Source: Escherichia coli
GTDB taxonomy: Bacteria > Pseudomonadota > Gammaproteobacteria > Enterobacterales > Enterobacteriaceae
Assembly (NCBI RefSeq): GCF_044324875.1
Contig: NZ_CP172185.1
Strand: one strand, 5' to 3'
DNA: 64,000 nucleotides
Position numbers and translations under genes: made by a program. Under the pieces are notes generated by a model, which worked only from the letters and a program-made list of their open reading frames with translations, did no database searches and was not told the origin of the DNA. Positions 13,996-51,062 of this stretch are shown one piece after another. The first letter of the stretch is position 1, and each line of letters opens with the position of its first letter.

Positions 13996-14095
13996 GTAAG
14001 TTCCTTGATGGTTGTCTTTTCCAGGATTCTACCCTTTTGACAAGGGCGACAGATATCGTTTTAATCGGAGCCAGTCATAACAAAAGGTACTGTCA

Positions 14096-14695: not shown

Positions 14696-14802
14696 CAAAA
14701 AGCAAAGCCTTTGTGCCGATGAATCTCTATACTGTTTCACAGACCTGCTGCCCTGCGGGGCGGCCATCTTCCTTTATTCGCTTATAAGCGTGGAGAATTA
14801 AA

Positions 14803-15570
14803 ATGCGACATCCTTTAGTGATGGGTAACTGGAAACTGAACGGCAGCCGCCACATGGTTCACGAGCTGGTTTCTAACCTGCGTAAAGAGCTGGCAGGTGT
14901 TGCTGGCTGTGCGGTTGCAATCGCACCACCGGAAATGTACATCGATATGGCGAAGCGTGAAGCTGAAGGCAGCCACATCATGCTGGGTGCGCAAAACGTG
15001 GACCTGAACCTGTCCGGCGCATTCACCGGTGAAACCTCTGCTGCTATGCTGAAAGACATCGGCGCACAGTACATCATCATCGGCCACTCTGAACGTCGTA
15101 CTTACCACAAAGAGTCTGACGAACTGATCGCGAAAAAATTCGCGGTGCTGAAAGAGCAGGGTCTGACTCCGGTTCTGTGCATCGGTGAAACCGAAGCTGA
15201 AAACGAAGCGGGCAAAACTGAAGAAGTTTGTGCACGTCAGATCGACGCGGTACTGAAAACTCAGGGTGCTGCGGCATTCGAAGGTGCGGTTATCGCTTAC
15301 GAACCCGTATGGGCAATCGGTACTGGCAAATCTGCAACTCCGGCTCAGGCACAGGCTGTTCACAAATTCATCCGTGACCACATCGCTAAAGTTGACGCTA
15401 ACATCGCTGAACAAGTGATCATCCAGTACGGCGGCTCTGTAAACGCGTCTAACGCTGCAGAACTGTTTGCTCAGCCAGACATCGACGGCGCGCTGGTTGG
15501 CGGTGCTTCTCTGAAAGCTGACGCTTTCGCAGTGATCGTTAAAGCTGCAGAAGCGGCTAAACAGGCTTAA
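14803..15570 (+). CDS. tpiA: triosephosphate isomerase
   Basis: 255 aa, [15 protein letters not shown]..., [11 protein letters not shown]. Confidence 0.95.
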
Positions 15571-15579
15571 GTCTGACAG

Positions 15580-15612
15580 GTGCCGGATTTCATATCCGGC
15601 ACTTACTTTCCT
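15580..15612. terminator. hairpin between the convergent tpiA and cdh
   Basis: gccggatttcatatccggc palindrome. Confidence 0.5.
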
Positions 15613-15624
15613 TAACTCCTCGCC

Positions 15625-16380
15625 TTAACGCAAAATCTCACACTGATGATCCTGGATTTCCTCGGCTGAAGCACGGTTCAGCGTCAGTAGATTTCGTTGT
15701 GTCGCCAGCAAAACAAACGAATTATCACTCTGCCGTACCATCGCCAGCCCGTAGCTTCCCATATGTTCCCGCGCCTCAGGCACTTCCTCTGCAAGCATCA
15801 TAAATGGGCTGCGTTGTACCAGTTCGCTTTCCGTTACCCGACGCGCCAGGTACTCATGCCCACGCAAACCACCTGGCAGTGGCAACCAGCGGCTGCTGAT
15901 GTTAGCCAGATTGTTATCCAGTTGTTCGCGCACATCAGGACGAATACAAGAGATATGAATATGAAAATGGTTTTGCGTACGCCCGGTGCGAGAGTTGATC
16001 GCCAAAGAAACCGCGCGATCGGGAACCGGCTGGCCGTATTTTTTGCTCATAAAATCACGCGCCTGCCAGGCCAACCAAAAGAAGTTCGGCGTTGAAGGAT
16101 CGGTCAACAAAGGACTTTCCGTGCCGTTAATACGATACGTTGGCATCAACAGATATTGCAGTGGGCCATTAAGATCTTTTAAAACCACGTATCCGGCATT
16201 GGGTTTGACTTCCGCACATGGCGAAGGATTTTTATTTTGCTGTTGATTGGGCAAACATTCCTCAAGGACAATCTTACGTAGTGTATCCGACTCTTCACCG
16301 GTTAATTTCCAGTAACCAATACCGGCAGCCACAACGGCGATAACTATCATCACCAAAAAAAGAAGACCCGCTTTTTTCAT
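15625..16380 (-). CDS. cdh: CDP-diacylglycerol pyrophosphatase
   Basis: ORF 15625-16572; ATG at 16380 gives [20 protein letters not shown]... (251 aa). Confidence 0.9.
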
Positions 16381-16486
16381 CTTTTTTTCCCTGTACCTCA
16401 AAGAGATGCAAGGGTAACGCAAAATCGTGACAAATAAAAAACCCGGTCGCGAGAAACCACCGGGTTTGATAATTATCCTGGGGAAA

Positions 16487-17476
16487 TCAGCGTTTGCTGA
16501 TCTGATCGAACGTACCGCCGTTAGCAAAATGCTCTTTTTGCGCTTTCGTCCAGCCGCCGAACTCTTCATCAATGGTGAATAACTTCAGCTTTGGAAACGC
16601 ATTTTCGTACTTTTTCGCCACCTCAGCATCGCGCGGACGGTAGTAGTTTTTCGCGGCAATTTCCTGACCTTCTGGCGAGTAGAGATATTTCAGGTAGGCT
16701 TCCGCCACCTCTTTGGTGCCTTTTTTCTCGACCACTTTATCGACCACCGACACGGTTGGCTCTGCGAGGATAGACTCACTCGGCGTAACGATTTCGAATT
16801 TATCTTTCCCCAGTTCATTCGCTGCCAGCAGAGCTTCGTTTTCCCAGGCGATCAGTACATCGCCAATCCCGCGCTCGACAAAGGTATTAGTGGAGCCGCG
16901 CGCGCCAGAATCCAGAACTTCGACGTTTTTATACAGTGCCCGAACAAAATCCTGTGCTTTTGCCTGATCGTTGTTGTTGTGATGCAGCGCGTAGCCCCAG
17001 GCAGCCAGGTAGTTCCAGCGCGCGCCACCAGAGCTTTTCGGATTAGGCGTGATCACCGAAACACCCGGTTTAATCAGATCGTTCCAGTCATGGATCTGCT
17101 TCGGATTGCCCTTACGCACCAGGAAAACAATGGTGGAAGTGTACGGTGCGGAGTTATCCGGCAGACGTTTGATCCACTCTTTATCAATCCGCCCGCGTTC
17201 CGCAATCGCGTCCACGTCATAGGCCAGAGCCAGAGTGACAACATCAGCTTCAATACCATTGATTACCGACGTCGCTTGTTTGCCTGAACCACCGTGTGAC
17301 TGACGAATCACCACGTTATCGCCAGTTTGCTGTTTCCAGTGGGCGCTGAATGCCTTGTTGTACTGTTCGTACAATTCGCGCGTTGGATCATATGAAACGT
17401 TAAGAAGCTGAATATCCTTTGCCATAACGCTGGTTGCCGCCAGCAAAAATGTTAACCCTACGCCCCACTTGTTCAT
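16487..17476 (-). CDS. sbp: sulfate-binding periplasmic protein Sbp
   Basis: 329 aa, signal peptide then sulfate/thiosulfate-binding-protein fold. Confidence 0.9.
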
Positions 17477-17637
17477 CGCCCGACTCTCTTATGTTGTGTT
17501 GTGATGAGCAAAGCGTGCCAGAAGGTTAACAAAACATTAAAGAATAAAAAAAGATTTGCTATAACTTGCGGGTATATGTTGAGGGATTAAAAAGGCGGAA
17601 GAAATCCGCCTCATATTGCTGACAAAGTGCGCTTTAT

Positions 17638-17740
17638 CGATGCCGGATGCGGCGCGAACGCCTTATCCGGCCTACAAAAGTTTGCAAATTCAATAAATTG
17701 CAGAATTCATGTAGGCCTGATAAGCGAAGCGCATCAGGCA
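17638..17740. repeat. BIME: two inverted REP palindromes between sbp and pfkA
   Basis: gatgccggatgcggcgcgaacgccttatccggcctac and gtaggcctgataagcgaagcgcatcaggca. Confidence 0.7.
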
Positions 17741-17795
17741 TTTTTGCTTCTGTCATCGGTTTCAGGCTAAAGGAATCTGCCTTTTTCCGAAATCA

Positions 17796-18758
17796 TTAAT
17801 ACAGTTTTTTCGCGCAGTCCAGCCAGTCGCCTTTGAACGGACGCTTCATGTTTTCGATAGCGTCGATGATGTCGTGGTGAACCAGCTGTTCGTTCTGGAT
17901 ACCTACGCAACGACCGCCGTAACCTGCCAGCAGCAGATCGATAGCGTAAGCGCCCATACGGGAAGCCAGAATACGGTCGTAAGGCACCGGAGAACCACCG
18001 CGCTGGATGTGGCCCAGCACAGTTGCGCGGGTTTCACGACCGGTTTCTTTCTCGATGAAATGCGCCAGTTCGTCAACATCACACATATGTTCGGTAATCG
18101 CCACGATCGCGTGTTTTTTACCTTTCGCGATACCCGCTTTGATTTCGTTTACCAGGTCTTCACGGCTGAATTCAACTTCCGGAACTACAACGAATTCACA
18201 GCCACCGGCAATGGCCGCAGCCAGGGTCAGATCGCCACAATAACGGCCCATCACTTCCACCACGGAAATACGCTGGTGAGAAGAAGAGGTGTCACGCAGA
18301 CGGTCGATCGCTTCTACAACGGTGCTCAGCGCAGTGAAGAAACCGATAGTGTAGTCAGTGCCTTTGATGTCGTTGTCGATAGTGCCCGGCAGACCGATGC
18401 ACGGGAAGCCCATTTCGGTCAGACGCATTGCACCCATGTAGGAACCGTCACCGCCGATAACCACCAGCGCGTCGATACCACGTTTTTTCAGGTTTTCGAT
18501 AGCCACGGCGCGGATGTTCTCGTCGCGGAATTCCGGGAAACGCGCAGAACCGAGGAACGTACCACCACGGTTGATCATGTCAGAAACGCTGTAACGGTCT
18601 AGCTGTACCATACGGTCTTCATACAGACCCAGATAGCCGTCATAAATGCCCATTACTTCCAGACCTTCTGTCAGCGCAGAACGAACAACCCCGCGAATTG
18701 CGGCGTTCATGCCTGGCGCATCACCGCCGCTTGTCAACACACCGATTTTCTTAATCAT
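17796..18758 (-). CDS. pfkA: 6-phosphofructokinase I
   Basis: ORF 17796-18854; ATG at 18758 gives [23 protein letters not shown]... Confidence 0.95.
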
Positions 18759-28724: not shown

Positions 28725-31737
<3,013 letters not shown>

Positions 31738-31743
31738 ACACTG

Positions 31744-31800
31744 CCGGATGCGGCGCGAGCGCCTTATTCGGCCGACAGATCGTGCATCCGACAACACCGA
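31744..31800. repeat. REP element between rhaA and rhaD
   Basis: gccggatgcggcgcgagcgccttattcggcc plus an adjacent partial palindrome. Confidence 0.6.
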
Positions 31801-31819
31801 ATTTACAGGAACACCGAAC

Positions 31820-32644
31820 ATGCAAAACATTACTCAGTCCTGGTTTGTCCAGGGAATGATTAAAGCCACCACCGACGCCTGGCTGAAAGGCTGGGACGAG
31901 CGCAACGGCGGCAACCTGACGCTACGCCTGGATGACGCCGATATCGCGCCTTATCACGACAACTTTCATGCACAACCGCGCTATATCCCGCTCAGCCAGC
32001 CCATGCCTTTACTGGCAAATACACCGTTTATTGTCACCGGCTCCGGCAAATTCTTCCGCAACGTCCAGCTTGATCCTGCGGCTAACTTAGGCGTCGTAAA
32101 AGTCGACAGCGACGGCGCGGGCTACCACATTCTCTGGGGGCTAACTCACGAAGCCGTTCCAACCTCTGAACTCCCGGCGCACTTCCTCTCCCACTGCGAA
32201 CGCATTAAAGCCACCAACGGTAAAGATCGGGTGATCATGCACTGCCATGCCACCAACCTGATCGCCCTTACCTACGTACTGGAAAACGACACCGCGGTCT
32301 TCACTCGCCAACTGTGGGAAGGCAGCACCGAATGTCTGGTAGTGTTCCCGGATGGCGTCGGCATTTTGCCGTGGATGGTGCCCGGCACCGACGAAATCGG
32401 CCAGGCGACCGCACAGGAAATGCAAAAACATTCGCTGGTGTTGTGGCCCTTCCACGGCGTCTTCGGCAGCGGTCCGACACTGGATGAAACATTCGGTTTA
32501 ATCGACACCGCAGAAAAATCAGCACAAGTATTAGTGAAGGTTTATTCGATGGGCGGCATGAAACAGACCATCAGTCGTGAAGAGCTGATAGCGCTCGGCC
32601 AGCGTTTCGGCGTTACACCACTCGCCAGTGCGCTGGCGCTGTAA
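31820..32644 (+). CDS. rhaD: rhamnulose-1-phosphate aldolase
   Basis: ORF 31730-32644; [37 protein letters not shown]... from the ATG at 31820. Confidence 0.95.
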
Positions 32645-32653
32645 GGAGCAAAC

Positions 32654-32968
32654 ATGATCCGCAAAGCCTTTGTCATGCAGGTTAACCCCGACGCCCACGA
32701 AGAGTATCAGCGTCGGCATAATCCAATCTGGCCGGAACTGGAAGCAGTGTTGAAATCTCACGGTGCGCATAACTACGCCATTTACCTCGACAAAGCGCGT
32801 AATCTGCTGTTTGCCACGGTAGAGATTGAATCTGAAGAACGGTGGAATGCGGTAGCCAGTACTGATGTTTGCCAACGTTGGTGGAAGTATATGACCGACG
32901 TTATGCCCGCTAACCCGGATAACAGCCCGGTGAGTAGCGAGCTGCAAGAAGTGTTTTACCTGCCTTAA
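32654..32968 (+). CDS. rhaM: L-rhamnose mutarotase
   Basis: 104 aa, [30 protein letters not shown]... Confidence 0.9.
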
Positions 32969-33008
32969 TGAGTTGCGGTGCCGGAAAATATCCAGCACCG
33001 CGCCTTCA

Positions 33009-34403
33009 TCAGAAGAAGTATTTAAAGCGAACGCGTGCCCCGTAACGGTCATCAGTATCATCACCGTGTTTTTTATCACCGTCGCTATCCAGAATGGAGT
33101 AATACGTCCCGAGGTAAATATTAAAGTTCTCCATATCCATCACATTAGCGAACTGATAAGACGCATGAATGGTATGAATGGTGTACGTCCCTTCATCATC
33201 AATCCAGCAGTCGTTATCACAAACTACACCGCTGAATTCATCAATCTTATTGTGCGCGTAGATATAACCCAGCTCGAAACGTTTCCACAGCGCGTTAATC
33301 CCGGCAGTGAAATCTTTCTCATTATTAGCATCTAAATAGGCGGTATTAAGATTAACCACGACGCCATTTTCCGGATCCGTTTTCAGGCCATTCCAGGTCA
33401 TGCTCATACCATAGCCGGTACGATCGGACTGATCGACAAAATTACCCTTGCTATCGGTATAACCATAAGCATTATTTACTACGTTCGCTTCCATCGCTGC
33501 GGAAACGGTGAATTCTTCCGTCGGCGACCAGGCAATTACTGGACGCAGATAAGCAACATTTTTCTGCCGCTCCATATCGCGTCCATGATAATTACCGTCA
33601 TTATATAAAGATGTTCCGTCTTCAAGTAACGTGTTTAATTCAAAATACCAGTTATCAAGTTGTTTGCTGACGAGGAAATTACCGCCAGCGTTAGAGCGCC
33701 CGCGGCCCTCTTTCATCATATAGATATAACCGCTGCCATCGTCATAAAGATCGTTCGCAGTATTACCGGAATGTTCAACAAAGGTATCCTGATTCAGCGG
33801 GAACATATCGTAGGCTTCAAAACGGCCTACTTTGACCTTCCAGTCGTTTTCTTTGCCAAAGAAGAATACCGCATCATCGATATTTACTGAACCGTGCATG
33901 TCCCCCAGCGGTTGTGCGGAGAACCCGGCGAAATAACCGTTGTCCATCTTTCGCATACCATCAAAACCTAACAGAATACGACCATTGAGATTCCACTGTT
34001 CATTAGTGGGATCGCTATTCACATCAGCGTTGGTCATTGCCAGCAGGCCATGATTACTTTCTGCATCCATATTAAATTCTACGTCGCCGTAGATTTTTAA
34101 ATCGCCATAACCTGAGAGCAAAAGATTAGGTGAGGTGGAATTTTTCTTTGCAGATTCCGCCGTTGCCTGTCCATTTACCGGCGTATTGCCCTGGGCAGCC
34201 TTAATTTCGCGGATCTCAGCGGCTTGTTGTGTCTGCAGCTGTTTAACCTGGCTCTCTGCTTTTGCTGCCCGCATTTCTGCAGCTTCCAGGCGTTCTTCCA
34301 GCAATGCCATGCGTTGTTCCAGCGTTAAATGCTGTGTTTTTGCCATTCCGGTACTACATGCCAATAATAAACCGATGGCTAAAGATAATGTCGATTTTTT
34401 CAT
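33009..34403 (-). CDS. putative outer-membrane carbohydrate porin (OprB/ScrY-like) with N-terminal coiled coil
   Basis: 464 aa; signal peptide MKKSTLSLAIGLLLACSTGMA; coiled-coil segment (LEQRMALLEERLEAAEMRAAKAESQVKQLQ); aromatic/Gly-rich amphipathic strands; C-terminal ...RFKYFF typical of beta-barrels. Confidence 0.7.
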   Translation of the reverse strand: MKKSTLSLAIGLLLACSTGMAKTQHLTLEQRMALLEERLEAAEMRAAKAESQVKQLQTQQAAEIREIKAAQGNTPVNGQATAESAKKNSTSPNLLLSGYGDLKIYGDVEFNMDAESNHGLLAMTNADVNSDPTNEQWNLNGRILLGFDGMRKMDNGYFAGFSAQPLGDMHGSVNIDDAVFFFGKENDWKVKVGRFEAYDMFPLNQDTFVEHSGNTANDLYDDGSGYIYMMKEGRGRSNAGGNFLVSKQLDNWYFELNTLLEDGTSLYNDGNYHGRDMERQKNVAYLRPVIAWSPTEEFTVSAAMEANVVNNAYGYTDSKGNFVDQSDRTGYGMSMTWNGLKTDPENGVVVNLNTAYLDANNEKDFTAGINALWKRFELGYIYAHNKIDEFSGVVCDNDCWIDDEGTYTIHTIHASYQFANVMDMENFNIYLGTYYSILDSDGDKKHGDDTDDRYGARVRFKYFF

Positions 34404-34879
34404 TATTTACGTTCCCTGAAATAAAAGAGACCCTACGCTTTCCAAAAGGAATACGTATATAGAGAAATATAAGGTGTGCACTTTCGAATTTTTAATCCAA
34501 CTTCAGCAGGCCGATGGATAGTATCCCGCTGCATAATATGAGTAAATCCGCTGATTTCCTGGAACGTGAGGAATATAACAATAGTGCCGTTTTTAACCAA
34601 ATATCGTAAAAAACATTAGATATAATTCACGCTGACTCATAAGCCACAAATATAAATAACCTTGCTGCAAAACATGTGCGGCAGTTAAACATTCACAACA
34701 TCATTAAATAATGATTTTTTATTCACTGCATTTATTTTTCCCATCAATATGTGCCTTACACCGCAAAATTTATCCTTCACTCTGCCTTATATTGTCACGA
34801 CTTCACGACATATCCGCGCTCATCACAAAACCGCCCCGCCGTTACAATTAACTATAATATTTTTTCATGGAGTCCAATA

Positions 34880-35326
34880 ATGGCAGCACTTACTGCAAGC
34901 TGTATTGACCTGAATATTCAGGGCAATGGCACTTATTCCGTTCTGAAGCAGTTGGCGACAATGGCGTTACAAAACGATTTTATCACCGACTCACACCAGT
35001 TCCTGCAAACCCTGCTGCTGCGCGAAAAAATGCACTCCACGGGATTTGGTTCCGGCATCGCCGTGCCGCACGGTAAAAGCGCCTGCGTTAAACAACCGTT
35101 CGTGTTATTTGCCCGCAAAGCGCAGGCCATTGACTGGCAGGCCAGCGATGGCGAAGACGTCAATTGTTGGATCTGCCTCGGCGTGCCGCAAAGTGGCGAA
35201 GAGGATCAGGTCAAAATCATCGGCACGCTGTGCCGCAAAATTATCCACCAGGATTTTATCGACCAACTGCGACAGGGCGACGCCGACCAGGTGCTTGCTT
35301 TGTTAAATCAAACCCTCAGCTCATAA
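34880..35326 (+). CDS. frvA: PTS fructose-like EIIA component FrvA
   Basis: ORF 34751-35326; ATG at 34880 gives a 148-aa EIIA-type protein. Confidence 0.8.
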   Translation: MAALTASCIDLNIQGNGTYSVLKQLATMALQNDFITDSHQFLQTLLLREKMHSTGFGSGIAVPHGKSACVKQPFVLFARKAQAIDWQASDGEDVNCWICLGVPQSGEEDQVKIIGTLCRKIIHQDFIDQLRQGDADQVLALLNQTLSS

Positions 35327-35336
35327 GGAAGTGGCG

Positions 35337-36788
35337 ATGGAGTCATCCTTACGTATTGTCGCGATCACCAACTGCCCCGCCGGGATCGCTCACACCTACA
35401 TGGTGGCGGAAGCCCTGGAACAGAAAGCCCGTTCTCTCGGCCATACCATAAAAGTGGAAACTCAAGGATCCAGTGGCGTTGAAAACCGCTTATCCAGCGA
35501 AGAGATTGCCGCTGCCGATTACGTGATTCTCGCCACCGGGCGTGGCCTGAGCGGTGACGATCGCGCGCGGTTTGCCGGGAAAATGGTTTATGAGATTGCC
35601 ATCTCCCAGGCGCTGAAAAATATCGACCAGATTTTCAGTGAATTACCGACAAATTCGCAGCTTTTTGCCGCAGATAGCGGCGTGAAGCTCGGCAAACAGG
35701 AAGTACAAAGCGGCAGCGTGATGAGCCACCTGATGGCGGGTGTCTCTGCGGCGCTGCCGTTTGTCATCGGTGGCGGTATCCTGGTGGCGCTTGCCAACAT
35801 GCTGGTGCAGTTCGGTTTGCCGTATACCGATATGTCGAAAGGCGCGCCGTCGTTTACCTGGGTGGTTGAATCCATCGGTTATCTCGGCTTCACCTTTATG
35901 ATCCCCATCATGGGCGCTTATATTGCCTCGTCGATTGCCGATAAACCCGCTTTCGCTCCGGCGTTTCTGGTTTGCTATCTGGCGAATGACAAAGCCCTGC
36001 TCGGCACCCAGTCTGGCGCGGGCTTCCTCGGCGCGGTGGTGCTGGGGCTGGCGATTGGCTATTTCGTCTTCTGGTTCCGTAAAGTCCGTCTTGGCAAAGC
36101 ATTACAACCGCTGCTCGGCTCCATGCTTATCCCATTCGTTACTCTGCTGGTTTTTGGCGTGCTCACTTACTACGTTATCGGGCCGGTGATGTCCGACCTC
36201 ATGGGCGGGCTGCTCCACTTCCTGAATACCATTCCTCCATCAATGAAGTTTGCGGCAGCGTTTTTGGTCGGTGCGATGCTGGCGTTCGATATGGGCGGCC
36301 CTATCAACAAAACCGCCTGGTTCTTCTGCTTCTCACTGCTGGAAAAACACATTTATGACTGGTACGCCATCGTCGGCGTTGTCGCGCTGATGCCACCTGT
36401 CGCGGCGGGTCTTGCAACGTTCATTGCGCCCAAACTATTTACCCGACAGGAAAAAGAAGCCGCCAGTAGCGCCATAGTGGTCGGTGCCACAGTCGCAACC
36501 GAACCGGCTATTCCTTACGCTCTGGCGGCACCACTGCCAATGATTACCGCCAATACGCTGGCGGGCGGCATTACCGGCGTGCTGGTGATCGCTTTCGGAA
36601 TCAAACGTCTGGCACCGGGTTTAGGTATCTTTGACCCGCTGATCGGCCTGATGTCGCCGGTAGGTTCGTTTTATCTGGTGCTGGCGATTGGCCTCGCGCT
36701 GAACATTTCATTCATTATCGTCCTGAAAGGATTATGGTTACGCCGCAAAGCCAAAGCTGCGCAACAGGAGCTTGTCCATGAACATTGA
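35337..36788 (+). CDS. frvB: PTS fructose-like EIIBC component FrvB
   Basis: ORF 35331-36788; EIIB Cys motif (ITNCPAGIAHTYM) then polytopic EIIC. Confidence 0.9.
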   Translation: MESSLRIVAITNCPAGIAHTYMVAEALEQKARSLGHTIKVETQGSSGVENRLSSEEIAAADYVILATGRGLSGDDRARFAGKMVYEIAISQALKNIDQIFSELPTNSQLFAADSGVKLGKQEVQSGSVMSHLMAGVSAALPFVIGGGILVALANMLVQFGLPYTDMSKGAPSFTWVVESIGYLGFTFMIPIMGAYIASSIADKPAFAPAFLVCYLANDKALLGTQSGAGFLGAVVLGLAIGYFVFWFRKVRLGKALQPLLGSMLIPFVTLLVFGVLTYYVIGPVMSDLMGGLLHFLNTIPPSMKFAAAFLVGAMLAFDMGGPINKTAWFFCFSLLEKHIYDWYAIVGVVALMPPVAAGLATFIAPKLFTRQEKEAASSAIVVGATVATEPAIPYALAAPLPMITANTLAGGITGVLVIAFGIKRLAPGLGIFDPLIGLMSPVGSFYLVLAIGLALNISFIIVLKGLWLRRKAKAAQQELVHEH

Positions 36789-37848
36789 GTTACTGCAACA
36801 GTTGTGCGAAGCCAGCGCCGTCAGCGGCGATGAACAGGAAGTTCGCGACATCCTGATAAACACGCTGGAATCCTGCGTAAATGAAATCACCTTTGATGGT
36901 CTGGGCAGCTTTGTTGCCCGCAAGGGGAATAAAGGTCCAAAAGTTGCCGTTGTCGGGCATATGGATGAAGTCGGCTTTATGGTCACCCATATCGACGAGA
37001 GCGGTTTTCTGCGCTTTACCACCATTGGCGGCTGGTGGAATCAGTCGATGCTCAACCACCGGGTAACCATACGCACACACAAGGGAGTGAAAATCCCTGG
37101 TGTGATTGGTTCCGTCGCGCCTCATGCGTTAACCGAAAAGCAAAAGCAACAACCGCTTTCATTTGATGAGATGTTCATTGATATTGGCGCGTACAGTCGC
37201 GAAGAGGTGGAAAAACGCGGCGTGGAAATTGGCAATTTTATTAGCCCGGAAGCCAATTTTGCCTGCTGGGGCGAAGATAAAGTGGTCGGCAAGGCGCTGG
37301 ATAATCGCATCGGCTGCGCGATGATGGCTGAGCTACTACAGACAGTAAATAACCCCGAAATTACGCTGTACGGCGTCGGCAGCGTGGAAGAAGAAGTTGG
37401 GCTACGCGGGGCACAAACCTCGGCTGAACACATTAAACCGGATGTGGTGATTGTGCTGGATACCGCTGTCGCAGGTGATGTTCCGGGCATTGATAACATT
37501 AAATACCCGCTGAAACTGGGCCAGGGGCCGGGGCTGATGCTGTTTGACAAGCGCTACTTCCCCAACCAGAAACTGGTAGCAGCGTTAAAAAGCTGTGCCA
37601 CGCAGAATGATTTACCGCTGCAATTTTCCACTATGAAAACCGGTGCGACGGATGGCGGGCGCTACAACGTAATGGGCGGCGGGCGTCCGGTTGTCGCGCT
37701 GTGTCTGCCAACTCGTTATCTGCACGCCAACAGCGGTATGATTTCAAAAGCCGATTATGATGCTCTGCTCACGCTGATACGGGGTTTTCTGACGACCTTA
37801 ACTGCGGAGAAAGTCAACGCGTTTAGCCAGTTCCGTCAGGTGGATTAA
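36778..37848 (+). CDS. frvX: M42-family aminopeptidase/endoglucanase-like FrvX
   Basis: ORF 36772-37848; MNIELLQQLCEASAVSGDEQEVRD... Confidence 0.9.
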   Translation: MNIELLQQLCEASAVSGDEQEVRDILINTLESCVNEITFDGLGSFVARKGNKGPKVAVVGHMDEVGFMVTHIDESGFLRFTTIGGWWNQSMLNHRVTIRTHKGVKIPGVIGSVAPHALTEKQKQQPLSFDEMFIDIGAYSREEVEKRGVEIGNFISPEANFACWGEDKVVGKALDNRIGCAMMAELLQTVNNPEITLYGVGSVEEEVGLRGAQTSAEHIKPDVVIVLDTAVAGDVPGIDNIKYPLKLGQGPGLMLFDKRYFPNQKLVAALKSCATQNDLPLQFSTMKTGATDGGRYNVMGGGRPVVALCLPTRYLHANSGMISKADYDALLTLIRGFLTTLTAEKVNAFSQFRQVD

Positions 37849-39596
37849 TGCTAAACGAACGCCAGTTAAAGATTGTCGATCTGCTGGAGCAACAGCCGCG
37901 CACGCCTGGCGAGCTGGCACAACAGACTGGCGTTTCGGGCAGGACCATCCTGCGCGACATTGACTATCTCAACTTTACCCTTAACGGCAAAGCCCGCATT
38001 TCCGCCAGTGGCAACGCGGGCTATCAGCTGGAAATCTTCGAGCGCCGCAGCTTTTTTCAGTTGCTGCAAAAGCACGATAACGACGATCGGCTGCTGGCGC
38101 TGCTATTACTGAATACCTTCACTCCCCGTGCGCAACTCGCCTCGGCGCTTAATTTGCCAGAAACGTGGGTAGCAGAGCGCCTGCCCCGCCTGAAACAGCG
38201 CTATGAACGCGGTTTTTGTCTCGCTAGTCGCCCTGGTTTGGGCCATTTCATTGATGAGACAGAAGAGAAACGCATTATTTTGCTGGCGAATCTTTTACGC
38301 AAAGATCCGTTTTTAATTCCTCTGGCGGGCGTAACACGAGACAACCTTCAGCAATTATCCACGGTCTGCGACAACCAACACCGCTGGCCGCTGATGCAGG
38401 GTGATTATCTCTCCAGCCTGATTCTGGCGATTTACGCCCTGCGTAATCAACTGACCGATGAGTGGCCGCAATATCCCGGTAGCGAGATAAAACAGATCGT
38501 TGAATATAGCGGCCTGTTTCTTGGTGATAACGCTGTAAGAACGTTGACGGGGTTGATAGAAAAACAGCATCAACAGGCGCAGGTTATTTGTGTCGATAAT
38601 GTGCTGGCATTGCTGCAAAGGGTGCCGGGCATTGCGTCATTGAATATTATTGATACGCAACTGGTTGAGAATATTACCGGGCATTTATTACGTTGCCTTG
38701 CCGCACCAGTATGGATTGCTGAGCACCGCCAAAGCAGCATGAATAACCTGAAAGCCGCCTGGCCTGCGGCCTTTGATATGAGTCTGCACTTTATTACGCT
38801 ACTGCGTGAACAGCTCGATATTCCCCTTTTCGACAGCGATCTGATCGGTTTGTATTTTGCCTGTGCGCTGGAACGACATCAAAACGAACGCCAGCCGATC
38901 ATTTTGCTCTCGGACCAGAACGCGATTGCCACTATTAATCAGCTCGCCATTGAGCGCGATGTCCTGAATTGTCGGGTGATTATTGCCCGCAGCCTGAGCG
39001 ATATTACCGCCATTAGCCAGGAGATTACGCCGTTATTGATCGTCAATAACAGCCACTATTTGCTGGATGACGCGGTAAAAAATAGTATTACCATCAAAAA
39101 TATCATTACCGCCGCCGGGATTGAGCAAATTAAACATTTTCTTGCCACGGCATTTATTCGCCAGCAGCCGGAGCGTTTTTTCTCTGCCCCCGGAAGTTTT
39201 CATTTTTCGAATGTACGCGGTGAAAACTGGCAACATATTACCCAGCAAATATGTGCACAATTAGTGACGCAACACCACATTACCGCCGATGAAGCACAAC
39301 GGATCATCGCCCGCGAAGGCGAAGGTGAAAACCTGATTGTTAATCGTCTCGCCATCCCACATTGCTGGAGCGAACAGGAACGCCGTTTTCGTGGATTTTT
39401 TATTACCCTCGCCCAACCGGTTGAGGTGAATAACGAAGTAGTTAACCATGTGCTGATCGCCTGTGCCGCCGCCGATGCGCGTCATGAGCTAAAAATATTT
39501 AGCTATCTGGCAAGCGTATTGTGTCAGCATCCGGCAGAGGTTATTGCCGGGTTAAAAGGATATGAGGCATTTATGGAGTTACTTCACAAGGGGTGA
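37848..39596 (+). CDS. frvR: frv operon regulator FrvR (HTH plus PRD/EIIA-like domains)
   Basis: 582 aa; overlaps the frvX stop. Confidence 0.85.
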   Translation: MLNERQLKIVDLLEQQPRTPGELAQQTGVSGRTILRDIDYLNFTLNGKARISASGNAGYQLEIFERRSFFQLLQKHDNDDRLLALLLLNTFTPRAQLASALNLPETWVAERLPRLKQRYERGFCLASRPGLGHFIDETEEKRIILLANLLRKDPFLIPLAGVTRDNLQQLSTVCDNQHRWPLMQGDYLSSLILAIYALRNQLTDEWPQYPGSEIKQIVEYSGLFLGDNAVRTLTGLIEKQHQQAQVICVDNVLALLQRVPGIASLNIIDTQLVENITGHLLRCLAAPVWIAEHRQSSMNNLKAAWPAAFDMSLHFITLLREQLDIPLFDSDLIGLYFACALERHQNERQPIILLSDQNAIATINQLAIERDVLNCRVIIARSLSDITAISQEITPLLIVNNSHYLLDDAVKNSITIKNIITAAGIEQIKHFLATAFIRQQPERFFSAPGSFHFSNVRGENWQHITQQICAQLVTQHHITADEAQRIIAREGEGENLIVNRLAIPHCWSEQERRFRGFFITLAQPVEVNNEVVNHVLIACAAADARHELKIFSYLASVLCQHPAEVIAGLKGYEAFMELLHKG

Positions 39597-39598
39597 AC

Positions 39599-39626
39599 TG
39601 TGTCGGATGCGCCGCATCCGACACTG
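39599..39626. repeat. REP-like palindrome after frvR
   Basis: gtgtcggatgcgccgcatccgacact. Confidence 0.5.
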
Positions 39627-39645
39627 CATTTATCATCAAAAACGT

Positions 39646-40296
39646 TTAACGCAGGCTATTATAGTCATCGACCATTTCGTTGTACTCGCGTAACGCTCGC
39701 GGAAATGAGTCGTCGACCATCCAGCTGGTGTTTGCATCCTGAAGTTGCTCTTTATCCCAGTCAGAGTACGGAACTTTATCTCTGACGCGGCGAACATATT
39801 TTTTAGCCTCGAGTTGATACTGGTCTGCCGAATTAATGAACGAGAAATTCATACCGCCTTTATCCGCTTCTTTGGCCTGCGCCACCAGCGTTTCCAGTTC
39901 AGAGACTTTCTTCATTGCCGCATCAACATCAAACTTCTCTTGCGAAATCAGGTTATTAATTTGTTTCGCTGAAATCATGACTGCCAGAGAGTAGTAGTGG
40001 AATGTTTTCCCTTCTCTTTGTTCAATATTTTTCAGTTCCGCAAGCTGGCGCTTATCGTTAATTTCCTGAATCGCCGCATGATAAGATTCTGCTACAGGTT
40101 CAAAGGCTTCAAGATTTTTTAAGAATGTCTGGTGCAGCGTTTTCCCTTTCGCAAACGCATCGTCTTTATAATTTTCCTGGGTGTAATATTTATCCATTTC
40201 GTTAATGGTATTACCCAACGCCACGGCAGCATCAATATAACTCACCGCCACGCCATCAATAGGTTGCAGCGCAGGCGTTAACGCCACTACACGCAT
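39646..40296 (-). CDS. yiiG: YiiG-like protein (DUF3829); possibly 5'-truncated versus K-12
   Basis: ORF 39646-40326 (GTG) with internal ATG at 40296; no signal peptide or lipobox at the N-terminus; only ~50 bp separates it from the fdhD stop. Confidence 0.55.
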   Translation of the reverse strand: MRVVALTPALQPIDGVAVSYIDAAVALGNTINEMDKYYTQENYKDDAFAKGKTLHQTFLKNLEAFEPVAESYHAAIQEINDKRQLAELKNIEQREGKTFHYYSLAVMISAKQINNLISQEKFDVDAAMKKVSELETLVAQAKEADKGGMNFSFINSADQYQLEAKKYVRRVRDKVPYSDWDKEQLQDANTSWMVDDSFPRALREYNEMVDDYNSLR

Positions 40297-40375
40297 TTTG
40301 TTTATAAATAAAATAATAAAATTCACGAAATGAATAAGTCCTGCAATTTAATATATATCGCAGGACTTATTTTAA

Positions 40376-41209
40376 TTAATTGCTCAAACGCTGCGGATGG
40401 GTATAAACCGTTGCCCGACCCGGTTTACAAAAGCCCACCAGCGTCAAATTACAGCGTTCAGCCACTTCTACAGCAAGTGTGGTCGCGGCAGACACCGCAA
40501 ACAAAATCTCTACGCCACACATCGCCGACTTTTGCACCATTTCATAACTGGCACGACTGGAAACCAGCACCGCACCTTGCTGCCAGCTTTCCCCTTCTTG
40601 TGACCGGCGGCCTAACAGTTTGTCCAGCGCCACATGGCGACCCACGTCTTCATGCCCGCCGACCAGTTCGCCAGATGGCAACATCCATGCAGCGGCGTGA
40701 GTACAACCAGTCAGTTGCCCCACTGGCTGGAAATCATTGAGATGACGTAATGCATCATCCAGTTTGTTGAGATCAAACGTCTGGGTGAACGGCAGCGGCT
40801 GCACCGGTTTCCCGATATCGTTAAGCTGTTCTACACCGCATACGCCACAGCCCGTACGTCCCGCCAGCGCCCGGCGGCGTTCCTTCAACCCCATAAAGCG
40901 GCGGCTGGAAAGCTCAATTTGAACTTCAAGACCATTACAGGAAGGAACGACATCCATGCCAAAGATATCGCGCGGACTTTCGATTATCCCCTCGGAAAGC
41001 GAAAAACCGAGCGCAAAGTACTCAAGGTCTTTGGGCGACGCCATCATCACCACATGCGAAATGCCGTTGTAGACCAGCGCAACGGGAACTTCTTCCGCGA
41101 CCTCATCTAACCGTGGGTGTTGTAAATCATCACGCCGCCATAACTCAATTTGACGAACACCTGTGATATTTGTCACATTTTCGATTTCTTTTTGCTGTGT
41201 TTTTTTCAC
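40376..41209 (-). CDS. fdhD: sulfurtransferase FdhD (formate dehydrogenase accessory protein)
   Basis: 277 aa, [28 protein letters not shown]... Confidence 0.9.
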
Positions 41210-41402
41210 TTTCTCTTAACCAGATAAGAACACACACACCAACATTATGGTATTCTGTTACAAACCCTTCCTGGATGGAGGGAAATTGAGCCAATTCTGG
41301 ACCTTTGCGGCCCCTTCCGCAAAGAAAAATAACTCCCACTCCCTGCACACGCAGCAAGCGAATGTAAATGGGACGTGACAATGTCGAAACAAGGAGCAAT
41401 CC

Positions 41403-44400
41403 ATGCAGGTCAGCAGAAGGCAGTTCTTTAAGATCTGCGCTGGCGGTATGGCAGGCACCACGGCGGCGGCACTGGGTTTTGCACCCAGCGTAGCACTCGC
41501 GGAAACCCGGCAGTATAAACTGCTGCGCACCCGCGAAACCCGTAATACCTGCACCTATTGTTCCGTAGGCTGTGGGCTGTTGATGTACAGCCTCGGTGAC
41601 GGAGCAAAAAACGCCAAAGCATCTATCTTCCATATCGAAGGCGATCCGGATCACCCGGTCAACCGCGGTGCACTTTGTCCGAAAGGCGCTGGCCTGGTGG
41701 ATTTCATCCACTCCGAAAGCCGTCTGAAGTTTCCGGAATACCGTGCGCCAGGTTCTGATAAATGGCAGCAAATCAGTTGGGAAGAGGCGTTTGATCGCAT
41801 CGCCAAACTGATGAAAGAAGACCGCGATGCTAACTACATTGCGCAAAACGCCGAAGGCGTGACAGTTAACCGCTGGCTCTCCACCGGGATGCTGTGTGCT
41901 TCCGCGTCGAGTAACGAAACCGGCTATTTAACGCAAAAATTCTCCCGCGCGCTGGGTATGCTCGCGGTCGACAACCAGGCGCGTGTCTGACACGGACCAA
42001 CGGTAGCAAGTCTTGCTCCAACATTTGGTCGCGGTGCGATGACCAACCACTGGGTCGACATCAAGAACGCCAACCTCGTCGTGGTGATGGGCGGTAACGC
42101 CGCTGAAGCTCACCCGGTCGGGTTCCGCTGGGCGATGGAAGCCAAAATTCACAACGGCGCGAAGCTGATTGTGATCGATCCTCGCTTTACGCGTACGGCG
42201 GCGGTGGCTGACTACTATGCCCCTATTCGTTCCGGTACTGACATTGCTTTCCTGTCAGGCGTATTGCTGTACCTGCTGAACAATGAAAAATTCAACCGCG
42301 AATACACCGAAGCCTATACCAACGCCAGCCTGATCGTGCGTGAGGATTACGGCTTTGAAGATGGCCTGTTCACCGGCTATGACGCGGAAAAACGCAAGTA
42401 CGATAAATCCTCCTGGACTTACGAACTGGACGAAAACGGCTTCGCCAAACGCGATACCACGCTGCAACATCCGCGCTGCGTGTGGAACTTGCTGAAACAG
42501 CACGTTTCCCGCTACACGCCAGATGTGGTTGAAAACATCTGTGGTACGCCAAAAGACGCGTTCCTGAAAGTCTGCGAATACATCGCAGAAACCAGTGCTC
42601 ACGATAAAACTGCCTCGTTCCTGTATGCCCTCGGCTGGACGCAACACTCCGTTGGTGCGCAAAACATTCGTACGATGGCGATGATCCAGCTGCTGCTCGG
42701 CAACATGGGGATGGCAGGCGGCGGCGTTAACGCCCTGCGCGGTCACTCCAATATTCAGGGGCTGACGGACCTGGGGCTGCTGTCGCAGAGCCTGCCAGGT
42801 TACATGACGCTGCCAAGCGAGAAGCAGACCGATCTGCAAACCTACCTTACCGCCAACACGCCAAAACCGCTGCTGGAAGGCCAGGTAAACTACTGGGGCA
42901 ACTACCCGAAATTCTTCGTCTCCATGATGAAGGCCTTCTTTGGTGATAAAGCGACGGCGGAAAATAGCTGGGGCTTTGACTGGTTGCCGAAGTGGGATAA
43001 AGGCTACGACGTCCTGCAATACTTCGAGATGATGAAAGAAGGCAAGGTCAATGGCTATATCTGCCAGGGCTTTAACCCTGTTGCCTCATTCCCGAACAAA
43101 AACAAAGTGATCAGTTGTCTGTCGAAACTGAAGTTCCTCGTCACTATCGACCCGCTGAACACTGAAACCTCTAACTTCTGGCAGAACCACGGTGAGCTGA
43201 ACGAAGTTGACTCGTCGAAGATCCAGACCGAAGTGTTCCGTCTGCCATCGACCTGCTTTGCGGAAGAGAACGGTTCTATCGTTAACTCCGGTCGCTGGTT
43301 GCAGTGGCACTGGAAAGGTGCGGACGCCCCAGGGATTGCGCTGACTGATGGCGAGATCCTCTCCGGTATCTTCCTGCGCTTGCGCAAGATGTATGCCGAA
43401 CAGGGTGGCGCGAACCCGGACCAGGTGCTGAACATGACCTGGAACTACGCTATCCCGCATGAGCCGAAGTCGGAAGAAGTAGCGATGGAGAGCAACGGTA
43501 AGGCGCTGGCCGATATTACCGATCCGGCAACCGGTGCGGTTATCGTCAAGAAAGGCCAACAACTTAGCTCGTTCGCCCAACTGCGCGATGACGGTACAAC
43601 CTCCTGTGGCTGCTGGATTTTCGCCGGTAGCTGGACGCCAGAAGGTAACCAGATGGCACGCCGTGATAACGCCGATCCGTCTGGCCTCGGTAACACGCTG
43701 GGCTGGGCATGGGCATGGCCGCTTAACCGCCGCATTCTGTATAACCGCGCCTCCGCAGATCCGCAGGGTAACCCGTGGGATCCGAAGCGTCAGTTGCTGA
43801 AATGGGACGGCACTAAGTGGACCGGCTGGGATATTCCGGACTACAGCGCAGCGCCTCCGGGTAGCGGCGTCGGGCCGTTTATCATGCAGCAGGAAGGCAT
43901 GGGGCGTCTGTTTGCCCTCGATAAGATGGCGGAAGGTCCGTTCCCGGAACACTACGAGCCGTTTGAAACGCCGCTGGGAACTAACCCGCTGCATCCAAAC
44001 GTTATCTCGAACCCGGCTGCACGTATCTTTAAAGACGACGCCGAAGCATTGGGTAAAGCCGATAAGTTCCCGTATGTCGGAACCACCTATCGTCTGACCG
44101 AGCACTTCCACTACTGGACCAAACACGCGCTGTTGAACGCGATTTTGCAACCAGAGCAGTTTGTGGAAATCGGGGAGTCGCTGGCGAATAAACTTGGCAT
44201 TGCCCAGGGCGATACCGTGAAAGTCTCCTCCAACCGTGGCTATATCAAAGCCAAAGCGGTGGTGACCAAACGTATTCGCACGCTGAAAGCGAACGGCAAA
44301 GATATCGATACCATCGGTATTCCGATTCACTGGGGCTATGAAGGTGTTGCGAAAAAAGGCTTTATTGCCAATACGTTAACGCCATTCGTTGGTGATGCGA

Positions 44401-44453
44401 ACACGCAGACGCCAGAGTTTAAGTCCTTCCTTGTGAATGTGGAAAAGGTGTAA
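41403..44453 (+). CDS. fdoG: formate dehydrogenase-O major subunit (selenoprotein; in-frame TGA at 41988-41990 read as Sec)
   Basis: ORFs 41403-41990 and 42039-44453 are in the same frame, separated by one TGA; Tat signal MQVSRRQFFKICAGG; Fe-S and molybdopterin motifs. Confidence 0.9.
41988..42040 (+). promoter_or_regulatory. selenocysteine codon plus putative SECIS hairpin region of fdoG
   Basis: The TGA is followed by structured sequence (cacggaccaacggtagcaagtcttgctccaac...); the element itself is inferred from the in-frame selenoprotein context. Confidence 0.45.
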
Positions 44454-44465
44454 CGGAGACGACAT

Positions 44466-45368
44466 ATGGCTTATCAATCTCAAGATATCATTCGTCGTTC
44501 CGCGACTAACGGTCTGACCCCCGCGCCTCAGGCGCGGGACTTCCAGGAAGAAGTGGCGAAACTCATCGACGTCACCACCTGTATCGGCTGTAAAGCCTGT
44601 CAGGTGGCGTGTTCAGAGTGGAACGACATTCGCGATACCGTCGGCAATAACATTGGGGTGTACGACAACCCCAATGATTTAAGTGCCAAATCGTGGACGG
44701 TAATGCGCTTCTCGGAAGTGGAGCAGAACGACAAACTGGAATGGCTGATCCGCAAAGACGGCTGTATGCACTGTTCCGATCCAGGCTGCCTGAAAGCGTG
44801 CCCGGCGGAAGGAGCAATTATTCAGTATGCCAACGGTATCGTCGACTTCCAGTCCGAGCAGTGCATCGGCTGCGGTTATTGCATTGCGGGCTGTCCGTTC
44901 GACATTCCGCGCCTCAACCCGGAAGACAACCGCGTCTACAAATGTACGCTGTGCGTTGACCGCGTGGTGGTTGGGCAAGAACCGGCCTGCGTGAAGACCT
45001 GCCCAACGGGCGCGATTCACTTCGGTACGAAAGAGTCGATGAAAACGCTGGCGAGCGAGCGCGTGGCGGAGCTGAAAACTCGCGGTTACGACAATGCGGG
45101 TCTGTACGATCCGGCAGGCGTTGGTGGTACACACGTTATGTACGTGCTGCACCATGCTGACAAGCCAAATCTGTATCATGGCTTGCCGGAGAACCCGGAA
45201 ATCAGCGAAACCGTGAAATTCTGGAAAGGCATCTGGAAACCGCTCGCGGCTGTTGGCTTTGCGGCTACCTTTGCGGCCAGTATCTTCCACTACGTGGGTG
45301 TCGGTCCGAACCGTGCGGATGAGGAAGAGAATAATCTGCACGAAGAGAAAGACGAGGAGCGCAAATGA
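44466..45368 (+). CDS. fdoH: formate dehydrogenase-O iron-sulfur subunit
   Basis: 300 aa; multiple CxxCxxCxxxCP ferredoxin motifs. Confidence 0.95.
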
Positions 45369-46000
45369 AACGACGTGACACCATCGTGCGCTACACCGCG
45401 CCGGAACGTATCAACCACTGGATCACCGCCTTCTGCTTCATCCTGGCGGCGGTGAGCGGGCTGGGCTTTTTGTTCCCGTCCTTCAACTGGTTGATGCAAA
45501 TCATGGGCACACCGCAGCTGGCGCGAATTCTGCACCCGTTTGTCGGCGTGGTTATGTTTGCCTCGTTCATCATCATGTTTTTCCGTTACTGGCATCACAA
45601 CCTAATCAATCGGGATGATATCTTTTGGGCGAAGAATATTCGTAAGATCGTCGTCAACGAGGAAGTAGGTGACACCGGGCGTTATAACTTCGGTCAGAAA
45701 TGCGTTTTCTGGGCGGCGATTATTTTCCTGGTTCTGCTGCTGGTGAGCGGCGTGATTATCTGGCGTCCTTATTTTGCGCCTGCTTTCTCAATCCCGGTGA
45801 TCCGATTCGCGTTAATGCTGCATTCATTTGCCGCAGTGGCGTTAATTGTGGTTATCATGGTGCATATCTACGCCGCCCTTTGGGTGAAAGGCACGATTAC
45901 CGCCATGGTGGAAGGATGGGTTACCAGCGCCTGGGCGAAGAAACATCACCCGCGCTGGTACCGTGAGGTCCGCAAGACAACGGAAAAGAAAGCTGAATGA
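45365..46000 (+). CDS. fdoI: formate dehydrogenase-O cytochrome b556 subunit
   Basis: 211 aa, 4 TM with His ligands. Confidence 0.95.
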
Positions 46001-46926
46001 GTATTCGCATAATCCCGCAAGATGAGCTGGGTTCGAGCGAGAAACGTACGGCGGATATGATTCCGCCGTTATTGTTCCCTCGGCTCAAGAATTTATACAA
46101 CCGCCGCGCCGAGCGTCTGCGCGAGCTGGCAGAAAATAATCCGCTGGGTGATTATCTGCGCTTTGCTGCGCTTATCGCCCACGCCCAGGAAGTGGTGCTG
46201 TACGACCATCCGCTGGAAATGGATTTGACCGCACGCATTAAAGAAGCCAGCGCACAAGGCAAGCCCCCGCTGGATATTCACGTTCTACCGCGTGATAAGC
46301 ACTGGCAAAAGCTGCTGATGGCGCTGATTGCTGAGCTGAAACCTGAAATGAGCGGCCCGGCGCTGGCAGTGATTGAGAATCTGGAGAAGGCATCGACCCA
46401 GGAGCTGGAAGATATGGCCAGCGCACTGTTTGCCTCTGATTTCTCGTCCGTCAGCAGTGATAAAGCGCCGTTTATCTGGGCTGCGCTGTCGCTCTACTGG
46501 GCGCAGATGGCTAATCTGATCCCCGGCAAAGCCCGCGCTGAATACGGCGAACAACGTCAATATTGCCCGGTATGTGGCTCTATGCCGGTGTCCAGCATGG
46601 TGCAAATTGGCACCACTCAGGGGCTGCGTTACCTGCACTGCAACCTGTGTGAAACCGAATGGCACGTAGTGCGCGTAAAATGCAGCAACTGCGAGCAGAG
46701 CGGCAAACTGCATTACTGGTCGCTGGATGACGAACAGGCCGCGATTAAAGCCGAAAGCTGCGATGACTGCGGCACTTACCTGAAGATTCTTTATCAGGAA
46801 AAAGAACCGAAAGTTGAAGCCGTGGCAGATGACCTCGCCTCTCTGGTTCTGGATGCGCGAATGGAGCAAGAAGGCTACGCCCGCAGTTCCATCAACCCGT
46901 TCCTGTTTCCGGGTGAAGGGGAGTAA
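45997..46926 (+). CDS. fdhE: formate dehydrogenase formation protein FdhE
   Basis: 309 aa; CPVCG...CNLCETEW...CSNCEQ...CDDCG zinc-ribbon motifs. Confidence 0.95.
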
Positions 46927-47108
46927 TCTCTGACGTTTTCCGGGTGGCGCTGGTCGCCCGGATTACTGTTGATAGGATGTGGTGACACCCTCTCTCGTAT
47001 TCCGCGTTACCCATTCAAGACCAAGCCATTAGTGCCTGTTTGGCCTCATTCTTCCCGCCAACACATCGATAAGGTTATTGGTATGTCACTGATGACAAGC
47101 GTAAGATT

Positions 47109-48119
<1,011 letters not shown>

Positions 48120-48203
48120 TGATTGGCATCCTGCCAGTCACTCCGGGAATTAACTCTTTTCACCACAGTCTCCATTGCCGTGTTTAAACCAGTGGAGACG
48201 TCA

Positions 48204-49769
48204 ATGTCCAGAAAGAGAAAATCCAGGAGCACTATGGAAACCTGTTTTAAGATCCTTCAGCTCAAGTTCGACAAGAAGCTGACTAACCGTTGTATCGGAC
48301 TGACGTTACACATCAGCGCCTCAACCGTTTTTGAGGTTCTTGCCCGCTTCAAAGCCTCTTCTCTGTCATGGCCATTACCTGCTGATATATCCCATGACAC
48401 GCTGGAGAAACTCATTTTTCCGCCCAAAGACACCTTTGCATCAGAGCTTGTAATGCCTGACATGTTGTACTTCGATACGGAAATGAGAAAACCAGGTGTG
48501 ACGCGGCAACTGTTGTGGATGGAATACAAGGCACAGGCGGGTAACAAAGCGATGGGATACTCGCACTTCTGCCGTTGCTACCGGGAGTGGAAAAAAACGC
48601 GACGTCTCTCCATGCGCCAGGAGCATCGTGCCGGCGAAAAGCTTTTTATCGACTTCTGTGGTCCTACGGTTCCTGTTATTAATCCGGACACCGGTGAGAT
48701 ACGCCGCGTGGCAATCTTCGTGGCCGTAATGGGGGCGTCCAACTATACCTACGTTGAAGCGTGCGAAGGTCAGGACATGATGTCATGGTTAAATGCCCAC
48801 AGCCGTTGCCTGACCTTCCTGGGCGGCGTACCGAAGCTGCTCATCCCCGATAACCTCAGAAGCGCAGTGAAAAAGGCCGATCGATATGAGCCTGTCATCA
48901 ACGACAGTTATCAGGCACTGGCTGAGCACTATGGCACGGTTATCATCCCGGCCCGACCACGCAAACCTAAAGATAAACCAAAAGCAGAAAACGGCGTCCT
49001 CATCGTTGAACGATGGCTTCTTGCCCGCATCCGTAATGAAACCTTCCACACGCTCAGGGCGCTGAATGCGCGCCTTAGGGAGTTACTGACAGACATGAAT
49101 AACCGGCCAATGAAGGGGTACGGCAATCAAACCCGTGCAGAACGCTTCCGCATACTGGATGCGCCAGCACTCTCTCCGCTGCCTCTGGCACCTTATGAAT
49201 ACACGGAATACAAAGCTGTGAAGGTTGGCCCTGACTACCACGTTGAATATGCCCGTCACTGGTACTCCGTTCCACACGAACTGGTCGGTCAGCGTCTGTC
49301 ACTGAAGGCGGGGCAGTCGGTGGTACAGCTCTGGCACAAGGGGCAGTGTGTGGCGCAACATCCGCGCAGCACACATGAATATAAACACACAACCAATCCG
49401 CTTCACATGCCAGAGCGCCACCGGCAGCACGGGACATGGACACCGGAACGCCTGATCGAGCAGGGAAAACGTACGGGCCCGTCCACAGGCCGGGTGGTTG
49501 AATCCATGCTGAAGGCAAAACCCCATCCGGAACTGGCTTATCGTGCAGTTCTGGGGCTGCTGGCACTTCAGAAAAAATACGGCCCGGAACGGCTGGAAAA
49601 GGCCTGTTACGTTGCCCTGCACTATAACGCCCCTGACAGACGCTTTATCGACAATCTGCTGCGTCACCATCGGGAGAACCTGGAGCTTCCATTATCCCGC
49701 CAGGGCGAACAACATCCGGCATATGCTTCAGAGCATGAAAACCTGCGTGGTCCGGGCTACTACCACTGA
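48204..49769 (+). CDS. istA: IS21-family transposase IstA
   Basis: ORF 48123-49769; ATG at 48204 with SD ggagacg; N-terminal HTH and DDE integrase-like core. Confidence 0.8.
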   Translation: MSRKRKSRSTMETCFKILQLKFDKKLTNRCIGLTLHISASTVFEVLARFKASSLSWPLPADISHDTLEKLIFPPKDTFASELVMPDMLYFDTEMRKPGVTRQLLWMEYKAQAGNKAMGYSHFCRCYREWKKTRRLSMRQEHRAGEKLFIDFCGPTVPVINPDTGEIRRVAIFVAVMGASNYTYVEACEGQDMMSWLNAHSRCLTFLGGVPKLLIPDNLRSAVKKADRYEPVINDSYQALAEHYGTVIIPARPRKPKDKPKAENGVLIVERWLLARIRNETFHTLRALNARLRELLTDMNNRPMKGYGNQTRAERFRILDAPALSPLPLAPYEYTEYKAVKVGPDYHVEYARHWYSVPHELVGQRLSLKAGQSVVQLWHKGQCVAQHPRSTHEYKHTTNPLHMPERHRQHGTWTPERLIEQGKRTGPSTGRVVESMLKAKPHPELAYRAVLGLLALQKKYGPERLEKACYVALHYNAPDRRFIDNLLRHHRENLELPLSRQGEQHPAYASEHENLRGPGYYH

Positions 49770-49785
49770 CAGAAGGAACAACAGT

Positions 49786-51062
<1,277 letters not shown>

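Follow-up and report, generated by a model that had tools for sequence, protein, structure and literature searches.

YiiG is an uncharacterised lipoprotein of the YiiG family, defined by the domain DUF3829 (PF12889). In Escherichia coli K-12, the gene yiiG (b3896) comprises 1056 bp and encodes 351 aa. The protein begins with MKRNLLSSAIIVAIMSLGLTGC, and its N-terminus consists of a lipoprotein signal peptide with a lipobox (LGLTGC), followed by a Pro/Ala-rich stretch. A sequence search of the PDB with K-12 YiiG returned no match, and a whole-word literature search on yiiG yielded passing mentions and no functional study. Reports which touch on the gene include a MarA-bound site inside yiiG of an ETEC strain (PMC5684230) and an antibiotic selection which yielded two yiiG promoter mutations as well as an ATG to ATT start-codon mutation, read by the authors as altering expression (PMC11742677). 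Furthermore, a hotspot of mobile-element insertion near yiiG was replicated across two isolate collections (bioRxiv 10.1101/527788).

Shortened forms of the gene are also on record, and truncated yiiG is an ordinary, common and already annotated pseudogene allele. The closest described examples are those of the strains CFSAN061763 (CA897_RS22585) and 21AH126 (AC6I20_RS22670), both labelled in RefSeq as 'YiiG family protein; incomplete; missing N-terminus'. More distant ones are the pseudogenes of CFT073 (C_RS22915), ST131 and Nissle 1917.

Here, we describe the yiiG locus in a stretch of 64,000 nt from E. coli (RefSeq assembly GCF_044324875.1, contig NZ_CP172185.1), which is called the window throughout. 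A preliminary description had proposed that yiiG is 5'-truncated in this stretch, with a K-12 length of about 351 aa, which proved exact. The features of the locus are the following, with coordinates of the window:

37848-39596, plus strand: frvR, intact convergent neighbour, 582 aa
39600-39624, no strand assigned: perfect 25-nt palindrome GTGTCGGATGCGCCGCATCCGACAC between the convergent stops of frvR and yiiG, identical in K-12
39646-40287, minus strand: yiiG remnant, 642 nt, equal to K-12 yiiG codons 139-351 plus stop, frame intact in the window
40280-40287, no strand assigned: deletion junction, the sole kept copy of the 8-bp direct repeat AACGCCAC
40288-40326, minus strand: chance N-terminal extension MNFIILFINKMRV, with an ATG at 40294-40296 and a GTG at 40324-40326, both in frame
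40333-40371, minus strand: terminator-like hairpin of fdhD with a 15-bp stem, between the fdhD stop and the remnant
40376-41209, minus strand: fdhD, intact upstream neighbour, 277 aa as in K-12, dN/dS of 0.013 versus K-12

According to the ORF list of the window, the sole sizeable ORF between frvR and fdhD extends over 39646-40326 on the minus strand and has a length of 226 aa from the GTG at 40326 or 216 aa from the ATG at 40296; the remaining ORFs of the interval do not exceed 75 aa and lie in other frames. The GTG is located 49 nt from the fdhD stop within AT-rich DNA. The ORF contains no cysteine at all and therefore cannot have a lipobox. On each of these points (a single ORF of 216-226 aa, a start within about 50 bp of the fdhD stop in AT-rich DNA, no signal peptide or lipobox) the preliminary description was right. 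Codons 1-13 of the ORF (MNFIILFINKMRV) stem from DNA that was once intergenic and are in frame by chance.

The comparison with K-12 and with the same interval of other strains, proposed earlier as a check, was carried out by megablast of window positions 39400-40700 against 5426 complete E. coli genomes, 5424 of which matched. These 1301 bp of the window span 1779 bp in K-12 MG1655, and the difference is a single clean gap of 478 bp in the window, with the junction at 40279|40280. The same gap appears against five other full-length alleles. The 642 nt retained are 95.5% identical to K-12, with 29 differences and no indels, and run in the same frame to the same stop. When the retained repeat is counted with the coding side, the gap takes out codons 1-138 together with 64 bp in front of the start codon and leaves codons 139-351 in frame, which bears out the 5' deletion suspected before. 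Moreover, K-12 and six other full-length E. coli alleles, one of them with a DNA identity of only 83%, all encode a YiiG of 346-351 aa, which speaks against the possibility, raised at the same time, that the orthologues are about 220 aa long.

In K-12, the 478-bp segment absent from the window is bounded on either side by AACGCCAC, once inside yiiG at codons 139-141 (GGCGTT-AACGCCAC-AGCAC) and once 56-64 bp upstream of the ATG (GAA-AACGCCAC-TACACG). The intact allele thus has a copy of a short direct repeat on each side of the segment, and the junction has kept one of the two, a footprint which suggests that the deletion arose by replication slippage or by microhomology-mediated illegitimate recombination. 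The lost segment contains the native ATG and AAGG, the likely ribosome-binding site, and in addition the signal peptide, the lipobox cysteine (LTGC), the Pro/Ala-rich linker and the first approximately 64 of the 285 positions of DUF3829. In a search with the Pfam model PF12889, the window ORF still scored 250.2 bits (gathering cut-off 26.8; E = 4e-74), covering positions 65-285 of 285, compared with positions 2-285 in K-12 YiiG. The ORF thus shows a significant match to the family and the expected position between frvR and fdhD; it has neither the complete domain nor a lipobox. A search of NCBIfam gave no usable family.

To determine the frequency of this allele, a 42-mer centred on the deletion junction was used as query, which is unable to seed on undeleted alleles. 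It matched 940 of the 5426 genomes, including CFT073, Nissle 1917 and APEC IMT5155. This number is an undercount because an additional SNP of the ST131-type allele breaks the megablast seed, and the SNP variant of the junction was found in 414 further genomes, including EC958. The 478-bp deletion is present in at least 1354 of the 5426 complete genomes (25%), and the intact K-12 junction in 3692 (68%). Since the junction sequence occurs in at least 1354 independent complete genomes, the deletion in the window is not an assembly artefact. It is fixed in major extraintestinal lineages (ST131, ST73 and ST95-type strains), and the 42-mer offers a simple marker by which about one quarter of E. coli genomes, the main B2 extraintestinal lineages among them, can be told from all others. 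Two junction matches of the ST131-type allele lie on plasmid-labelled records, possibly mislabelled replicons or a chromosomal segment on a plasmid.

The alleles of CFSAN061763 and 21AH126 have the same junction as the window, are identical to it at every compared site of the retained segment, and also carry the frv operon. The sole difference seen between CFSAN061763 and the window is a 6-bp indel in the spacer between frvR and yiiG. This 6-bp insertion beside GTGTCGGATGCGCCGCATCCGACAC occurs in CFSAN061763 and several other alleles and is absent from the window and K-12. The pseudogenes of CFT073, ST131 and Nissle 1917 share the 478-bp junction but differ from the window in an additional 135-bp deletion, the lack of an in-frame start and a porin gene in place of the frv operon. 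In all 13 deletion alleles whose annotation was examined, PGAP gives a pseudogene, 'incomplete; partial in the middle of a contig; missing N-terminus', and 7 carry the additional label 'frameshifted'. On the other hand, public databases list the exact proteins of 226 aa and 216 aa as 'hypothetical protein', the 226-aa form on at least 1000 contigs. For annotation, such a 216-226-aa 'hypothetical protein' should be counted as a remnant of yiiG and not as a gene.

Judging from sequence comparison, the feature in the window is most probably a pseudogene, a remnant of the lipoprotein gene yiiG which has lost its 5' part and its function, a reading to which we assign a probability of about 0.93. 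An intact homologue with a defined deletion relative to it exists at the same locus, the start signals are lost, and constraint is relaxed among the deletion alleles. In this reading, a deletion between the two 8-bp repeats AACGCCAC would have left one copy and removed the ribosome-binding site, start codon, signal peptide, lipobox, Pro/Ala-rich tether and about 64 DUF3829 positions. An ORF of 216-226 aa is visible because the remaining frame runs into an ATG and a GTG of the old intergenic DNA. The remnant sits directly behind the probable fdhD terminator hairpin, without a Shine-Dalgarno sequence or a recognisable promoter, and its product, if made, would be devoid of an export or lipidation signal. 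The deletion allele is old as well as common in E. coli, and continues to decay in most of its carriers.

The hairpin at 40333-40371 ends 6 nt before the GTG of the window ORF. It folds as RNA with -20.2 kcal/mol (z = -5.35; none of 200 shuffled sequences folds as well), was kept from the normal intergenic region between fdhD and yiiG, is conserved in all alleles compared and is likely the terminator of fdhD. Neither the ATG nor the GTG of the window ORF is preceded by a Shine-Dalgarno sequence. A crude consensus scan of window positions 39500-40500 revealed no sigma-70-like promoter; this result carries little weight because the same promoter and terminator consensus scans found nothing in the upstream region of K-12 yiiG either, although that gene is functional. 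From these signals, the remnant ORF probably makes no functional product. At the other end of the locus, the palindrome GTGTCGGATGCGCCGCATCCGACAC is probably a terminator shared by frvR and yiiG and working in both directions.

Could the remnant nevertheless still work, if fdhD transcripts read through into it or a promoter escaped recognition, and if translation from the ATG or GTG gave a shortened DUF3829 protein that acts in the cytoplasm? We regard this as very unlikely. In its favour, the ORF has remained uninterrupted in the window and five other sampled alleles, and gene callers other than PGAP annotate it as a protein in many GenBank records. Furthermore, dN/dS of the window remnant against K-12 is 0.09, with no indel and no stop. 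We rejected this ratio as a sign of constraint on the remnant, as over 622 nt of the retained segment the window and the full-length allele of AST215 are only 2 SNPs apart. The value is low because nearly all of the divergence from K-12 arose while the gene was intact, and the copy has stayed uninterrupted only by virtue of its near-identity with a living full-length allele; the window's own copy shows no private changes. Among the variants private to deletion alleles, there are 15 nonsynonymous and 3 synonymous ones, versus 12 and 28 among full-length alleles (Fisher p = 2e-4), a contrast which argues against a working gene but comes from a small sample in which a few sites near the 3' frameshift may suffer from alignment. 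Also against it, the ORF has lost about one fifth of the conserved domain together with every targeting signal, lacks a Shine-Dalgarno sequence and has no conserved start: 9 of the 14 deletion alleles compared have ACG in place of the ATG, a 1-bp indel takes the GTG out of frame in four alleles of the CFT073/IMT5155/ST131 type, and alleles of this type have no in-frame start upstream of the junction. No in-frame start codon is thus conserved among the deletion alleles compared. Second lesions, which go back to three different events, are found in 7 of 13 deletion alleles (the window being one of the 13), versus no indel in the retained segment of seven full-length alleles. One of them is a 135-bp deletion between 10-bp repeats GTTTTCCCTT (positions 2380-2390 of the CFT073 locus L003; about 40004-40138 in the window), which a junction-specific query detected in 692 genomes including ST131, CFT073 and Nissle. 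It is absent from the window and happens to be in frame, which could be taken in favour of a working gene. The other two are frameshifts, seen in at least 188 genomes and 3 further sampled alleles. The first, a shortening of A6 to A5 with a stop after 64 codons (N3, IMT5155 and BCE049), was found by a junction-specific query in 188 other genomes and is likewise absent from the window; the second is a +1 insertion near the 3' end in three sampled alleles (118UI, L004; T-HYM1, L017; TUM1886, L018). Altogether, at least 880 of the at least 1354 carriers are doubly damaged, and at the population level the remnant looks unconstrained. Less credible still is the reverse order of events, in which the short form would be ancestral and the K-12 form would have arisen by a 478-bp insertion; we give this hardly any weight. 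The short allele is indeed found in B2 lineages (CFT073, EC958 and Nissle), and this phylogroup is often taken to branch close to the root of E. coli. However, the additional 478 bp encode, in frame and without a break from the remaining gene, a canonical lipoprotein signal peptide and DUF3829 positions 2-64. The domain model was built from many taxa, and an insertion would not create the missing part of the domain. In addition, the highly divergent allele with 83% nucleotide identity is also full length (347 aa).

Within the reading as a pseudogene, it can be asked whether the deletion occurred once and was spread by homologous recombination, or recurred at the 8-bp repeat; both are compatible with the verdict on the remnant. 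In a neighbour-joining tree of the retained 622-nt segment from 20 alleles, the deletion alleles do not form one clade. Group I, made up of the window, CFSAN061763, 21AH126, FDAARGOS_448, EC571, O102:H6, TUM1886, 118UI and T-HYM1, clusters with the full-length alleles of AST215 and RMDEC465, and the B2-type group of CFT073, IMT5155, BCE049 and N3 takes a separate position. The upstream flank also shows differing haplotypes among deletion alleles. Both observations would fit recurrence, yet 8-bp repeats 478 bp apart are a weak substrate for slippage, frequent exact recurrence is not expected, and the sample comprises only 20 alleles. Moreover, the locus is visibly mosaic, and recombination after a single event therefore explains the tree pattern equally well. 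In 118UI and T-HYM1 (THYM1), for example, a group-I centre is joined to a 3' end of the B2 type. CFT073, 118UI, ST131 and other genomes carry, beside rhaM, a carbohydrate porin gene in place of the entire frv operon (CFT073, L003 244-2050; 118UI, L004 87-1900; ST131, L020 1-900). Homology of these genomes to the window breaks inside the last approximately 10 codons of yiiG, hence the different 3' end; the window carries the frv operon together with the deletion allele. We prefer a single deletion followed by recombination and consider repeated deletion doubtful. At the site of the +1 frameshift, corresponding to about 39700-39712 of the window, the sequence reads GACTCATTTCC as in the window and then CGAGAGC as in K-12; this frameshift may represent the join of two haplotypes by recombination and not a new insertion.

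The wider interest of the locus is limited to yiiG as a possible case of adaptive gene loss. The gene is disrupted or altered in several independent ways, namely by the 478-bp deletion, by IS1, by the nearby insertion hotspot and by the laboratory-selected mutations mentioned above. If the IS1 insertion, the hotspot, the selected mutations and the common natural deletion are taken together, loss of YiiG might sometimes, or even repeatedly, have been favoured, as opposed to neutral decay. We consider this improbable; if true, removal of the envelope lipoprotein YiiG would give a benefit in fitness or drug tolerance. The IS1 at the yiiG locus was seen in one genome (H29).

Several further observations concern the surroundings of the locus. 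Strain AVS0285 harbors a full-length yiiG of 347 aa (L010 1512-2555) with only about 83% DNA identity to the window, followed by a 2.3-kb hypothetical gene in place of fdhD; a second matching place lies elsewhere in this genome, an unusual structure. In two genomes, frvR is damaged where yiiG is intact, being N-terminally truncated in RMDEC465 (L006 1-397) and frameshifted in AR437 (L009 1-396). When 20 kb of the window (30000-50000) were used as query, the top genomes matched positions 1-18002 of the query only, in 4-5 pieces with 96.9% identity over 26-30 kb. They contain extra genes which are absent from the window (porin, ATP-binding protein and hypothetical protein), and window positions of about 48000-50000 were left uncovered. 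Finally, the formate dehydrogenase alpha-subunit gene adjoining fdhD (41403-44453, plus strand) contains an in-frame stop at 41988-41990, after codon 195, at which the ORF list splits the gene; RefSeq gives one CDS of 3051 bp, named fdnG by PGAP. We take this stop to encode Sec196, the selenocysteine expected in the alpha subunit of fdo/fdn, and not to be a lesion.
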